A DNA stretch of 6,538 nt, taken from IMG/VR virus record IMGVR_UViG_2529293223_000007; one strand, written 5' to 3'. Made by a program: the position numbers and the translations under genes. The notes under the pieces are model-generated. The model made no database searches, was not told the DNA's origin, and saw only the letters and a program-made list of their open reading frames with translations. Shown piece after piece: positions 1 to 6,538 of this stretch; within the stretch, counting starts at the first letter, position 1; each line of letters starts with the position of its first letter. Source of the DNA: a virus. Its lineage: Duplodnaviria; Heunggongvirae; Uroviricota; Caudoviricetes.

Positions 1-316
1 TATAATAAACTTACTTTTTTATCATTTTTCCACTTTAACAACATTTTGCTCCACTTTTCCACGACCAAACAACTTGAAATCTGGTTAAAATAACACGCAA
101 CACTATTCTTCTTCCTTGAGTCCGCCCGGAACTCGAAAAACAAACCGAGTTAAAGCCATTTTTCACAAAATCGATTTTGGGTCTCACCAAAATTACGGGG
201 TTGCATACGCATTCGTTTATTTTCGAACGTGTACATACAAATATGCACAAAAATAATCATAATTATTGTCTGAGATGCATTATGATATGAACACCAATTT
301 CGTATAGAGTCTCACT

Positions 317-907
317 ATGTCTCGAATTTTTGCTTACTGTCGGATATCAACGCTGGATCAGACCACCGAAAATCAACGCCGGGAAATCGAAAGTGCAGGT
401 TTTAAAATCAAACCTCAGCAAATAATCGAAGAACACATTAGCGGCTCAGCAGCAACCAGTGAGCGTCCTGGTTTTAACCGGTTGCTTGCTCGCCTGAAAT
501 GTGGTGATCAATTGATTGTGACAAAACTGGATCGCCTTGGTTGTAATGCAATGGATATCAGGAAAACAGTGGAACAACTGACTGAAACAGGTATCAGAGT
601 GCATTGCTTAGCATTGGGGGGCATTGACCTGACCAGTCCAACAGGAAAAATGATGATGCAAGTAATTTCAGCAGTCGCTGAATTTGAACGAGACCTTTTA
701 CTTGAACGCACTCATTCCGGGATAGTAAGAGCCCGCGGCGCAGGGAAACGTTTTGGTCGACCACCTGTGTTAAATGAAGAACAGAAACAGGTGGTATTCG
801 AACGAATTAAGTCAGGTGTAAGTATAAGTGCCATTGCCCGGGAATTCAAAACCTCGCGGCAAACCATTTTAAGAGCCAAAGCAAAACTTCAGACACCTGA
901 CATATAA
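317..907 (+). CDS. pin: Serine recombinase, DNA-invertase family (Pin/Hin/Gin/Cin-like), 196 aa
   Basis: ATG at 317, TAA at 905-907. N-terminal catalytic motif Y-C-R-I-S-T-L-D-Q (Y-x-R-V/I-S-T-x-x-Q, presumptive nucleophile Ser11), D-R-L-G box (DRLGC), E-R-x-x-x-E-R-T motif ([10 protein letters not shown]) and a C-terminal helix-turn-helix ([19 protein letters not shown]). Size and motif order are typical of small serine invertases/resolvases. From memory it closely resembles the PinR/PinQ proteins of E. coli cryptic prophages, hence the family-level symbol only. Weak AGAG Shine-Dalgarno about 10 nt upstream. Confidence 0.9.
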
Positions 908-1004
908 AAAATAATCTCGGTGTGAGATGCTTTACGTCTTCCAAGCCCCCTTCCTTGCCGTAAATGGAAAGATACATCTAATTATAGAATTTATATGTTT
1001 TACC

Positions 1005-1579
1005 CTACGGCAGTGCTGGCCATTCAATATCCTGTGCAGTTGACGTATCAACACGGTTCAGCAATACCCGATACTTTTTCCATGCTTCCAGCAACGAGAT
1101 TTCTTCCTCCGTTGCAATTTCCAGATCTGCAGCATCCTGAAGCGGCGCAATATGCTCACTGGCTACCTGCATCAGGTTGTTTTTTGTTTCTTCCGCCTCC
1201 CGGATCCGGAACAGTTTTTCTGCTTCCGTATCCTTCACCCAGGCTGTGCCGTTCCACTTCTGAAACTCCCCTTCCGGCGATAAGCAGGTAACATTTTCCG
1301 GTAACGGACCGAGTTCAGAAATAAATAACGCGTCCCCTGACGCCACGTCATAAACTGTTTTACCCCGATGATCTTCAACGAGATGCCACGATGACTCATC
1401 ACTGTTGAAAACAGCCACGAAGCCAGCCGGAATATCTGGCGGTGCAATATCGTACTGTTTGCTGGCAGACCTGTATGAGGCGGAATATATGCATCACCTT
1501 CACCAATAAATTCATTAGTTCCGGCCAGCAGATTATAAATTTTTATGGTCCGTGGTTGTTCACTCATTCTGAATGCCAT
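1005..1579 (-). pseudogene. tfa: Tail fiber assembly protein Tfa (lambda Tfa family), interrupted by a frameshift consistent with a 1-nt deletion near 1451
   Basis: Track ORF 1235..1579 begins [43 protein letters not shown] (lambda Tfa N-terminus) and then becomes nonsense. Track ORF 1005..1418, plus its open upstream extension in the same frame back to a stop at 1494-1496, reads ...[53 protein letters not shown]...EWPALP, which is the rest of Tfa. The frame switch lies between codon T43 (1451-1453) and the following D codon. The minus-strand sequence is ACGATATTG where I recall lambda having ACGGATATTG. The 'M' at 1418 is a GTG valine codon. Stop is TAG at 1005-1007. Confidence 0.8.
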
Positions 1580-4500
1580 TATGCAAGCCTCACAATATAG
1601 TTAAATGCGATGTTTTTGACGGTGTTTTCCGCGTTACCAGCAGCGTTAACGGTGATGGTGTGTCCATGTGAACCAATCGCAACGGAGTGCGTATGAGCAC
1701 CAATACCGACAGTATGCGCGTGTGCACCTGCAGATGCTGCTGTGCCGGACAGTGAGTGGCTATGATTACCATCTGTACTGGTATTAGCTAACCACCCCGT
1801 AGACATACCTGCTGAGCCTTGTACACCCCAGGTATTTTGACCTGAGCTTGTATAACCATATTGATAAGTATCTTTAAAAACACTGGGGTTAAATCGACGG
1901 CCATCTCTATGGCTGTGATTACCAGCTGCATTCGTGCTGCCACTTAAACTATGGGTATGCGCACCAGTGTTATTCGTGGATTTAGTGCCGTAATCAAACG
2001 ACGATGTGGTTTTCGTCCCCAAATCCGTACTGGATGCGCTGGCGCTGTGGGTATGCGATTTAATGCCGTCCTGTTCCTGAGACAATACGGCCCGACCACT
2101 GGCAGGTTTGCCCTTAATCGTCCAGCCACGCATATCAGGGATCACGCCTGACGGATAAGCCGCTGCAAGTTTCGGGTATGCAGATTTGTCAAAAGTCTGC
2201 CCCTGCATCAGGGCATAACCAGACGGAACGGTATCTGATGGCCACGGGATTGGTGCGCCGACTGGGTAGCTTTCTGGTGGAAGATTTTTCGAGGTATAAA
2301 CTTCTGCCCAGTCTTCCTCAAAACCATAACCGTCTCTTGAAGAACGGTAGAACAGACCACGATTTCTGTAATGCGCCTTCATCTGCAGGGTCCGGCAACT
2401 TCCGACTCCGGTATAGAAGTTAACCAGAATATAGCTGTCGCCAGAGCGGGTGACATTGTAAGCGCCTGATTCGGCATTCCAGGGAACGGCTCCATCCGAA
2501 TCCGCATAAGCCCCCGTCGAACGTCGGGCAAATGCACCAATATTTTCCGGCGTGAGGTTAATATCCGCCGAGCCATCAAACTTAACACCGTTAATTTTTG
2601 GGGCTGCCGCAAGTTTCGTCGCGGTATCGGCGTTCCCCTTCAGTGCCCCGGTGATCCCATCAGTAACAAACAACGGACCTGAAATAGTCCCTCCAGTCGT
2701 TGGCAGCGCTCCAATATCTGATGGTGTAGGTTTCTGATGTGAGCTATACATCGTATAAACAACACCATCGGTAACGCTGGAAGGCTTACTCGCTGAATAT
2801 GTTGGCGAGGTATAAATAGAAACTGACGCATTTGTAGTACAATCCCAATGGATATTTACACTCGTCGCATAATTGCCAATCTCAACGTAAATATCATATG
2901 TATCGCCGGATGTGTTGATCCAGGCGAAATTCGTTAATCCGACGGCTGTACGCTTCCACAAAGCTCCGGTAATCCCTTTGGGGTTTCCATTGCCTGCTCG
3001 TAGAACCAGTTCTGAAATGCCTGCCTGCTGTGGGGAGCCGACGTTGTAACCAGCGCCACCAATCAATGCGATGTAAACGATGGAACTCGCTTGTGGCATG
3101 GTAACCGTTGCCAGTTTGAACCACCCTGCCCCGCCAGAGAAAGAGATCGTTACTGAATTTAAAGTGCCAATATCTTTCGGTGTTAATGTTATATCCGCAG
3201 TCAGTGCTTTCCCGTTAACTTTTCGGTTAGATGGTACCCTGCCATTCGCATTGTCATTCGCTGCTTTCACTGCCTTCGGTGTCGCGGCAAGCGTTTCAGA
3301 TGTGCTGTTGGTTGCACTACTGAGCTGGACTATCCCCTTTTTCGTCGTGCTCGCATCCTCAAGCGCCACGGCGGATGCAATATCCTCTGCCCGTTTTGCC
3401 TCTGTCTCGGCGCGCGTTGCCGCGGTTTCTGCCGTACTTTTGCTCTGTGCTGCCGCCGTCGCACTGCCAGCTGCCTCTGTCGCCTTTGTGGATGCCGTCG
3501 TGGCGCTGCCCTTCGCTGCTGACGCCTGTCTGGTCGCCTCATCTTTTGAAGCAGACGCCGATGATGCCGATGACGCCGCCGAACTGGCGGATGATGCGGC
3601 GCTTTCTGCCGATTTTCCGGCGGCGGTGGCACTGGCTGAGGCCTGCCCGGCACTTGTTGACGCGGCACTGGCAGACGACGCAGCCGCTGTTTTTGAGCCT
3701 GCCGCAGCTGAGGCGCTCTGTCCCGCTGCCGTCTCAGAAGACTTAGCGTTCGTCTCGGACGTTTTTGCCGCCTTCGCGGAATTTCCTGCCGCCGTTGCCG
3801 AGGAAGCTGCGCTACTGGCGCTCGAGGATGCGTTCGTTTCTGATGATTTCGCTGCCTCTTTTGAGGCCGCCGCATCCCGGGCTGAGGTGGCAGCTTCTGA
3901 CGCTTTCGTAGTCGCGGTGGATGCAGAAGTGGCTGCTGATTGTTGTGACGCTGCGGCATTCGTTTCTGACGTTTTCGCCGCACCGGCACTGGTGGCCGCC
4001 GCACTTTTTGAGGACTCTGCAGCGGCAGCACTTTTTTCCGCTTCAGTGGCCTTTGTTGATGCCGTTCCTGCGCTGGAAGACGCTGACTGAGCCGACGAAG
4101 CGGCCTGTCCGGCTGACGTGCTGGCTGCGCGTGCTGAGCCTGCAGCATCAGTCGCATGGATTGCCGCCTCACGGGCAGATGTGCCGGCATTGCCGGCTGA
4201 CTTCTTCGCGGCTGCCGTGTTCTGTGCCACCGCGGACGCGTTACGCGCCACCTCTTCCACCATCAGTTCAAAACGGCGCAGAGCCTCCGGACGGGCATCA
4301 TCCTCCGTCATGGCACCAAGAAAATCATTCAGCGTACCGGGTCGGGAATCTTCATACACGGTGATGGTCCCGGCATGTGACGGCGGGAATCCTTCCACCA
4401 ACAGAATAACGCTGTACTGACCGTACTCAACGTCCATGCTGTAACGCCCGGCTTCATCCGGATTTTCTGAGGCCAGCGTGTTCACCACCACCGTGGTGCT

Positions 4501-4587
4501 GTTACGTTTTGCTTTCAGCTGGATTGTGCAGTTCTGTACCGGTTTTCCTGTGCCGTCTTTCAGTACACCTGAAATCTTTACTGCCAT
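1579..4587 (-). CDS. stf: Side tail fiber protein Stf, about 1002 aa
   Basis: The N-terminus [36 protein letters not shown]...[42 protein letters not shown] matches the lambda Stf N-terminal domain as I recall it. A long Ala/Ser/Thr-rich shaft follows, then a central region with a phage tail-fiber repeat motif ([20 protein letters not shown]), then a His-rich C-terminus ending [31 protein letters not shown] (lambda Stf / T4 gp37 tip type). I prefer the ATG at 4585-4587 as start; the track's MNM prefix begins at a GTG at 4591-4593. The ATG is preceded by GGGGTGAAT. The TAA stop (1579-1581) overlaps the tfa ATG (1577-1579) as TAATG. Confidence 0.93.
3330..4250 (-). repeat. Degenerate in-frame tandem repeat array encoding the Ala/Ser/Thr-rich shaft of Stf
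   Basis: Stf residues about 115-420 are low-complexity reiterations such as [53 protein letters not shown] and SETNASSS...[16 protein letters not shown]. The DNA is GC-rich and reiterated (gc[tc]gc[cg] runs), which produces long spurious ORFs in other frames on both strands (3080..4090 +, 3330..4190 -). Confidence 0.7.
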
Positions 4588-4603
4588 ATTCACCCCACAA
4601 ATA

Positions 4604-4651: not shown

Positions 4652-5251
4652 TCAGAACTTATAACCGACACCCACGATGAAACCGTCAGTGCGCCAGTCG
4701 CCACTGCCGGAGCCTTCATAAGCAATATCAATGGCCACGGATTCGGTCGGGTTAAACTGCACGCCAGCTCCCCACGCCAGAGACGTGTTGCTGTGGCGAC
4801 CGTCATCACTTCCGGTCAGCACGTCGTGCGTTTTCCCCTTGTTGTCAGTTACGCGGAGATAATCTCCGGAGAAAGTCGACACACGGCTGTAAGCCACCCC
4901 CGCCATCGCATACGCGCTGAACCATTCATTCACGCGCACAGACGGCCCCGCCATTACGCTGAACCAGCGGTTACGAACGGAATCTTCATGCCAGCGGGTA
5001 TCGCTGTAATGGGTCAGCTGGCGATTCTTGTCTCCTGCATAGCTGAAAGACGTCACCATCCCCAGTGTGTCCGTAAACTCATAACGGTATTTCACGTTAA
5101 TCCCGTTCAGATCATCGCTGCCGGGAACGTTCGTCCGGGCATGAAGATACCCCGCGCTCAGCGTGGACTGATGTTCAGACGCCCATGCAGGCGCACCGGA
5201 TACGGCCAGACAAATGGCTGCGGACAAAATGGCGGCATAAAGTTTACGCAT
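4652..5251 (-). CDS. lom: Lom outer membrane protein (Ail/Lom/PagC family 8-stranded beta-barrel), 199 aa
   Basis: ATG at 5249-5251 with GAGAGG Shine-Dalgarno 6 nt upstream. N-terminal signal peptide MRKLYAAILSAAICLAVSGAPAWA. The internal GINVKYRYE and SVMAGP...SAYAMAGVA segments and the C-terminal IDIAYEGSGSGDWRTDGFIVGVGYKF (terminal Phe) match lambda Lom as I recall it. Position between J and stf is the same as in lambda. Confidence 0.95.
   Translation of the reverse strand: MRKLYAAILSAAICLAVSGAPAWASEHQSTLSAGYLHARTNVPGSDDLNGINVKYRYEFTDTLGMVTSFSYAGDKNRQLTHYSDTRWHEDSVRNRWFSVMAGPSVRVNEWFSAYAMAGVAYSRVSTFSGDYLRVTDNKGKTHDVLTGSDDGRHSNTSLAWGAGVQFNPTESVAIDIAYEGSGSGDWRTDGFIVGVGYKF

Positions 5252-5317: not shown

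Positions 5318-6538
<1,221 letters not shown>

Follow-up and report, generated by a model that had tools for sequence, protein, structure and literature searches.

PinQ and PinR are orphan small serine recombinases whose genes lie at that end of Rac/Qin-type lambdoid (pro)phages where the tail fibres are encoded, and a function in trans has been published for them. Kirigo et al. (NAR 2025, PMC12529663) report that phage T2 is inhibited by PinQ and by the 99%-identical PinR, that the inverted fraction of the 1,797-bp P segment of prophage e14 rises from 30% to 88% when PinQ is overproduced, and that this inversion yields StfE2, which blocks T2 adsorption. According to their Table S4, the inverted fraction is 30% in wild-type cells, 22% without pinQ and 1.5% without pinE, and their BLAST survey is reported to have returned inversions in e14 only, with none in Rac or Qin; Tn3 is not mentioned in their paper. 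The present analysis concerns the same gene, here termed pin, as carried by IMG/VR virus record IMGVR_UViG_2529293223_000007 (Duplodnaviria; Heunggongvirae; Uroviricota; Caudoviricetes), a stretch of 6,538 nucleotides that is referred to below as the window.

The gene was recognized as pinR/pinQ by sequence identity and by its ydfK-pin-tfa-stf context at a prophage end. Megablast of positions 1-1600 against 5,426 complete Escherichia coli genomes, the set to which all genome counts below refer, returned 99.4% DNA matches annotated as pinQ/pinR, tfaQ/tfaR and tail fibre. The locus itself is thus already known, having been annotated as pinR/pinQ and given a published trans function, and what is added here, namely a transposon origin and the substitution of a catalytic arginine by Cys76, represents modest new detail. 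Taken together, the results make it very probable that pin is the stranded tnpR resolvase gene of a Tn3-family transposon, located at the end of Rac/Qin-type prophages with no substrate in cis.

Relationship of pin to transposon tnpR genes

The nearest non-prophage relatives of Pin were found in a protein cluster (P0014) that is 84% identical to it and is listed in 792 blocks of the collection, its members lying mostly on E. coli plasmids, and in a second cluster (P0100), 78% identical, from Hafnia and others. At the loci inspected (L031-L035 for the 84% relatives and L036-L040 for the 78% relatives), genes of both types are separated by 160 bp from a divergently oriented gene for a 994-aa transposase of the DDE_Tnp_Tn3 type, except in two places, where the transposase is absent or represented by an N-terminal fragment only. 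The plasmid element at L031 is a cargo-less, 3.8-kb Tn3-family unit, annotated as 'Tn3 family transposase' and 'recombinase' and bounded by perfect 41-bp terminal inverted repeats (IRs; GGGGTCCGCTTGGAAAACGGAAAATATCCCACGCTAAGACT). By blastn, positions 237-946 of the window, comprising upstream DNA, gene and downstream DNA, correspond to L031 5919-6630 with 82% identity over 712 bp. The two genes, pin and the L031 tnpR, both encode 196 aa and are 84.5% identical at the protein level and 83.6% at the DNA level.

The DNA upstream of pin was aligned with the DNA between tnpA and tnpR in six related transposons. In the transposons, this region holds a resolution (res) site with three subsites of paired TGTCCGAAA / TTTCGTACA-type half-sites. 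These half-sites are strictly conserved even among transposons with genes that share only ~72-77% identity with the window gene, and they are degenerate in the window. Pairwise, window positions ~203-306 match the transposon res in 75 of 114 aligned columns. A half-site scan identified five clustered half-sites in L031 (5886-5988, within 103 bp) and one in the region upstream of pin, the overall half-site count of the window being at chance level, while the paired-site score reached 15/16 in the transposon versus at most 11/16 in the window. A functional three-subsite res is thus not found upstream of pin, where the homologous DNA retains one intact half-site (Table 1). Judged from its sequence, this half-site may be a remnant autoregulatory site to which the protein would bind.

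On the other side of the gene, directly after its stop codon, a degenerate right terminal IR was recognized, which matches the 41-bp IR of the transposon at 29/41 positions with a 3-bp gap (manual count) and falls inside the blastn match. The sequence GTCTTCCAAGCC at 936-947, considered as a pix-like half-site in the gap between pin and tfa, was ruled out as such, as it forms part of this IR remnant.

We propose that a cargo-less Tn3-family transposon (tnpA-res-tnpR, Tn5403-like) would have landed on the far side of tfa in an ancestral phage, within its non-essential b region. Its tnpA would subsequently have been lost, decay of the three-subsite res would have spared only one good half-site, and the terminal IR would have been left as a degenerate copy after the stop codon. 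The tnpR gene would survive as pinR/pinQ; its product is full length and keeps the recognition helix, yet has acquired 18 lineage-specific amino-acid changes that include Cys76. The degenerate res and IR, together with the absence of tnpA from the window, indicate that transfer proceeded from transposon to phage.

Several observations weigh against this account. On its left side the transposon remnant has no sharp boundary, homology fading at ~203-237, and nothing significant was found of tnpA or of a left IR in the window or its left flank, the degenerate right IR being the only terminal repeat next to the gene; a history of a single insertion followed by deletion is therefore what we infer from what is left. 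The plasmid element resembles Tn5403, a name not verified against the Tn5403 sequence. Furthermore, PinQ is slightly closer to Gin (E 2.7e-29) than to gamma-delta resolvase (E 2.4e-22), so that the tnpR clade in question is not that of the textbook Tn3/gamma-delta resolvase. Finally, the low ratio of non-synonymous to synonymous substitution rates between pin and the plasmid tnpR (dN/dS 0.15), together with near-identity in thousands of genomes and in viable phages, argues that the protein is kept for something, and a published experiment reports recombinase-like effects despite Cys76 (PMC12529663). The pre-insertion sequence was sought by comparison with lambda, in which homology stops within tfa at ~1015; the insertion point is not reconstructable from this comparison, and the spacer that separates the tfa stop codon from the end of the transposon showed no homology to the transposon or to lambda.

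In the literature search, no papers linking pinQ/pinR to Tn3-family elements were found, annotation labels excepted; 'Tn5403-pinR' occurs as an annotation string in one paper. The relationship between pin and tnpR explains why annotation pipelines label plasmid Tn5403-type resolvases 'pinR'.

Two further loci bear on the relationship between prophage and transposon copies. In E. coli GCA_910593615.1 (L044, 4940-5565), a gene in the prophage context ynaE/ydfK-pin-tfa is 100% identical to the plasmid transposon allele; the transposon-allele patch spans about window positions 255-880 and restores Arg76 and part of res. This is a natural gene-conversion patch, and prophage and transposon copies still recombine. 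In Erwinia oleae (L018), two divergent resolvase paralogues (1280-1864, minus strand; 2068-2649, plus strand), 72% and 78% identical to Pin, are located ~200 bp apart, with res-like half-sites in the intervening DNA.

The search for an invertible segment in cis

The name 'pin' and the tail-fibre neighbourhood of the gene invite a wrong model. A first-pass annotation, made from the sequence alone, had placed pin among the Gin/Cin/Pin/Hin invertases with all catalytic motifs kept, and had described a recombinase that converges on tfa with no visible invertible segment beside it. The second part of this description is borne out: pin converges on tfa across a gap of 97 bp (908-1004), the tfa stop codon lying at 1005. 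The family assignment did not hold. Identity between Pin and PinE of e14 amounts to 37.7%; against Gin, the score of Pin is 105 bits and that of PinE 312 bits, and members of this (Din) family score ~300 bits mutually. Since PinE scores 112 bits against gamma-delta resolvase, Pin is about as distant from Gin as PinE is from gamma-delta resolvase. Pin is outside the Gin/Cin/Pin/Hin family.

DNA of the kind on which such invertases act was likewise missing from the window. The hix/gix/cix consensus and the e14 pix patterns gave no match in the window at up to three mismatches. In a scan that scored palindromic 12-2-12 arrangements, the best window site, located inside J, reached 13/18, a score attained by 22% of shuffles. 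As a positive control, both pix sites of e14 were taken from MG1655 and scored 17/18 each; the two inverted 26-bp crossover sites (12-2-12) of a Din-type switch were thus not found in the window. Inverted repeats in the window are short, imperfect and at chance level, and none resembling a crossover site brackets the stf 3' end and tfa. The window holds one tfa and one stf, and no second, inverted copy of either that might serve as an alternate fibre exon with its tfa partner. When pin was scanned for Fis sites, neither GNNYRNNWNNYRNNC cores nor pairs spaced by 46-50 bp were found, although this motif is degenerate and the test is a weak one.

Orientation heterogeneity was judged by a population proxy, i.e. 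by counting colinear junctions across genomes. The pin module (237-950) is present at a coverage of at least 80% in 2,751 of the 5,426 genomes, or about half; colinearity was observed in 2,757 genomes for the ydfK-pin junction and in 2,667 for the pin-tfa junction, and by this proxy no DNA adjoining pin was found in two orientations.

The analysis has shown that there is no invertible segment in cis and that there never was one, and that the position of pin beside the tail fibres is incidental, an accident of the landing site of the transposon. An origin as tnpR, with a fossil res and IR on its flanks, accounts for the fact that invertible DNA has never been found next to pin.

Two other accounts, both raised in the first-pass annotation, were weighed against these data. 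In the first, pin would be the invertase left behind by a decayed Gin/Cin/Pin-type tail-fibre host-range switch whose alternate stf'/tfa' cassette and crossover sites were lost. Such an origin would agree with the location of pin next to stf-tfa, like that of gin, cin and pinE, and with the variation of the fibre modules beside pin between phages, of which Tritos retains a 36-codon tfa 3' remnant only. It is nevertheless highly improbable, given that the protein lies outside the Din family and that the gene and both its flanks derive from a Tn3-family element (tnpR, decayed res, degenerate terminal IR), that no Din-type site exceeds chance in a scan that recovers the e14 control, and that Fis-like cores are missing (a weak test, as noted); mosaic breaks within tfa and stf explain the differences between fibre modules.

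In the second account, the recombinase would invert or excise a segment just left of the window; the 5' side of pin does face that way, and only 316 bp of the window precede the gene. Related genomes offer no such DNA: in two E. coli genomes inspected, the window start coincides with the end of ydfK, beyond which lie ynfT and a truncated ydfJ at the (Qin-type) prophage end, ~1.3 kb in total, whereas in viable phages attP and int-xis are located to the left of pin. With the ydfK-pin junction colinear in as many genomes as carry the module (2,757 versus 2,751), and with inversions in e14 only according to the published BLAST survey (PMC12529663), action on a segment to the left in cis is scarcely credible. 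Three intuitions of the first-pass annotation nonetheless hold, namely that pin has no substrate in cis, that something at this locus has decayed and that any activity would be exerted elsewhere, although neither account in which they were framed does.

Cys76, selection and action in trans

The complete catalytic set of a Tn3-family resolvase comprises Y6, R8, S10, D36, R68 and R71 in Tn3 numbering. In Pin, Y7, R9, S11 and R73 are present and E39 replaces D36, as in the transposon relatives, but the equivalent of R71, the last residue of the DRLGR motif, is Cys76 (DRLGC), so that the catalytic motifs are not all kept. The change, R76C, was assigned to the prophage branch. Arginine occupies position 76 in 115 of the 120 nearest cluster representatives and cysteine in five, four of which are 99-100% identical to the window protein, the fifth being P0009, a protein whose gene adjoins tfa; the five include large E. 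coli prophage-allele clusters. In Tn3 resolvase, the substitutions R71A and R71K abolish recombination and make cleavage ~1000-fold slower (PMC2794168). The earlier suggestion that the protein may still be active is weakened accordingly, although a trans effect on the e14 P segment has been reported (PMC12529663). The recognition helix of Pin is almost unchanged compared with that of the transposon protein.

Differences between pin and tnpR were polarized with four outgroups. The prophage branch was found to carry 21 non-synonymous and 16 synonymous changes, compared with nine and 18 on the transposon branch, corresponding to 18 and five amino-acid changes, respectively. The ratio on the prophage branch is equivalent to a dN/dS of ~0.4, i.e. 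below 1, and constraint on the prophage gene is relaxed yet not absent. That pin might be a functionless relic carried in a conserved prophage end is rather unlikely on these data. Decay or loss of res, IR and tnpA, the missing catalytic arginine and the elevated non-synonymous proportion on the prophage branch would all suit a relic, but the pin ORF is intact, 2,441 records hold it at 99% identity or more, it is kept in viable phages, the branch ratio is still below 1 and phenotypes of pinQ deletion have been published (PMC12529663).

Any present function of pin would be exerted in trans, as we infer here or as others have published. According to the published view, PinQ/R has full competence as an invertase and acts in trans on the e14 P segment, where it recombines pix sites and thereby operates an anti-phage switch. 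Besides the rise of the inverted fraction from 30% to 88% upon PinQ overproduction, it is reported that T2 survivors carry the inversion and that the effect requires stfP, stfE and e14 (PMC12529663). In our own comparison, moreover, the pix half-sites (TCTCGAAAACC, TCTCCCAAACC) resemble the site I half-sites of the Pin relatives (TGTCCGAAACC) at ~8/11 positions.

A number of points stand against full competence. Cys76 replaces the very arginine whose mutation abolishes recombination by Tn3 resolvase (PMC2794168). Deletion of pinE leaves 1.5% inversion despite the presence of pinQ and pinR, indicating that inversion at native level depends on PinE, and deletion of pinQ lowers it only from 30% to 22% (PMC12529663). 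In the accessible part of that report, we found neither an in vitro assay nor a catalytic mutant, nor any experiment with PinQ in a strain deleted for pinE. The ratio of 88:12 is unlike the equilibrium of a simple invertase, and resolvase site I has a 4-bp centre where the pix sites have a 2-bp centre. In addition, the e14 P segment occurs in 284 of the 5,426 genomes, compared with 2,751 for pin, and is thus far too rare for its inversion to be the general role of the gene. This would fit with classical work, in which K-12 cured of e14 was reportedly without gin-complementing activity although Rac and Qin remain. On balance, we hold full competence as an invertase to be a serious candidate, yet one that is doubtful.

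As a tentative proposal, and one we would not favour over its negation, PinQ/PinR may be a domesticated resolvase that is unable to exchange strands alone and that acts as a sequence-specific DNA-binding protein. One role for such a protein could be to bias or regulate how PinE inverts Din-type segments. Another could be to bind to res sites on incoming plasmids or Tn5403-like transposons, the resolvases of which have the same recognition helix. If this proposal were true, the published 'recombinase-activated phage defence' would have to be reinterpreted. PinQ may catalyse inversion directly or may act only through DNA binding or modulation of PinE, and the combination of Cys76 with the PinE dependence of the published inversion makes the anti-phage mechanism put forward for PinQ in 2025 directly testable.

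Prophage context and comparison with described systems

The gene order in related genomes is ydfJ'-ynfT-ydfK-pin-tfa-stf-lom-J, with pin in the b region, flanked by the tail-fibre genes on one side and attP on the other. The best whole-window match among the complete E. coli genomes is 97.6% identical over 97% of the window, stf being the mosaic part. The pin ORF is intact and encodes the Pfam domains Resolvase (E 2.5e-36) and HTH_7. Pin is 100% identical in the viable phages HannyBb, mEp460_ev081, 2H10 and Tritos as well as at E. coli and Escherichia ruysiae loci and in PinR-type alleles, and differs from K-12 PinQ at ~2 residues. The order in Tritos is int-xis...ydfK-pin, then the tfa 3' remnant, a different fibre module, stf and J. 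The remnant (L003, 7689-7800, equivalent to window 1005-1116) is kept beside pin despite the different fibre module, and the homology break falls within tfa at window position 1116.

Table 1. Features of the window, with positions counted from its first nucleotide
Feature	Position	Strand	Remarks
pin (pinR/pinQ allele)	317-907	+	196-aa ORF; Pfam Resolvase and HTH_7
Codon 76 of pin, TGT (Cys)	542-544	+	Equivalent of catalytic R71 in Tn3/gamma-delta resolvase (alignments to Gin and gamma-delta)
Decayed res site	203-306	+	Site I equivalent ~203-229, site II 244-275, site III 288-306
Sole surviving perfect resolvase half-site, TATACGAAA	298-306	-	Right half of site III; the pin ATG follows 11 bp downstream
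Degenerate right terminal IR (IRR)	913-950	+	Directly after the pin stop codon; ends in CCCC
Spacer between transposon end and tfa stop codon	951-1004		
tfa (tail fibre assembly gene)	1005-1579	-	Caudo_TAP domain; 94% identical to lambda tfa; frameshifted
stf	1579-4593	-	Lambdoid tail module, single orientation
lom	4652-5251	-	Lambdoid tail module, single orientation; intact
J, C-terminal part	5318-6538	-	Reaches the right window edge

Both tfa, which belongs to no switch, and stf-lom-J are context. Compared with an intact E. coli tfaQ, the window tfa is split by a 1-bp deletion near 1452 (ATATCGGTAC to ATATCGTAC) into ORFs at 1005-1418 and 1235-1579, and is either a pseudogene or the product of a sequencing error. 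An Rfam scan returned a single match, IS009 (1039-1237, minus strand, 220.9 bits, full length), which lies wholly within the tfa coding sequence; this 'sRNA' family appears to have been modelled on tfa 3' sequence common to many prophages. Within stf, positions 3330-4200 encode a long stretch rich in Ala and Ser and are internally repetitive (direct repeat families D1-D3, D6 and D8); long spurious ORFs (336 aa and 286 aa) occur here on the opposite strand and in other frames. To the left of the res remnant, positions 1-204, which begin at the ydfK stop, are invariant among E. coli copies; the motif TTTTCCAC occurs there twice, at 26-33 and at 55-62. When positions 1-1100 were scanned for promoters and terminators, weak consensus matches only were obtained (five versus 2.4 expected), which are not informative.

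Contigs with an E. coli-identical ydfK-pin-tfa arrangement were also encountered in metagenome-assembled genomes labelled Alistipes, Draconibacterium and Caldithrix (L006, L009 and L010), labels that probably reflect contamination or mis-binning. The 'trematode' match to PinQ quoted in PMC12529663 is likely to be an artefact of the same kind.

Among described systems, pinR/pinQ of the K-12 Rac and Qin prophages and the corresponding genes of phages 2H10, mEp460_ev081, Tritos and HannyBb are the same gene as the window pin. Compared with the cryptic K-12 Rac and Qin prophages, the window prophage is more complete, lom and the end of J being intact, although its tfa is frameshifted.

Gin of the Mu G segment, Cin of the P1 C segment and PinE of the e14 P segment are, like Pin, small serine recombinases with a C-terminal helix-turn-helix, encoded beside stf/tfa-type genes, and the P segment of PinE is reportedly also affected by PinQ. 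Pin is only ~38-40% identical to these proteins, lacks 26-bp crossover sites, an inverted cassette and a detectable Fis enhancer, and is flanked by transposon DNA. Fin of the Salmonella prophage Fels-2 is a genuine Din-family invertase, whereas PinQ/R belongs to the resolvase clade and has its catalytic arginine substituted. Like PinQ/R, Fin is a prophage recombinase reported to act elsewhere on the chromosome, in its case on the H segment (as cited in PMC12529663).

Compared with the Tn5403-like element of L031 (tnpA of 994 aa, 160-bp res, 41-bp IRs), the window is without tnpA and has one good res half-site, a degenerate IR and Cys76 in place of the catalytic arginine. It is nevertheless with the tnpR of this element that pin shares homology extending into res and the terminal IR, and the recognition helix of that resolvase is nearly identical to that of Pin.

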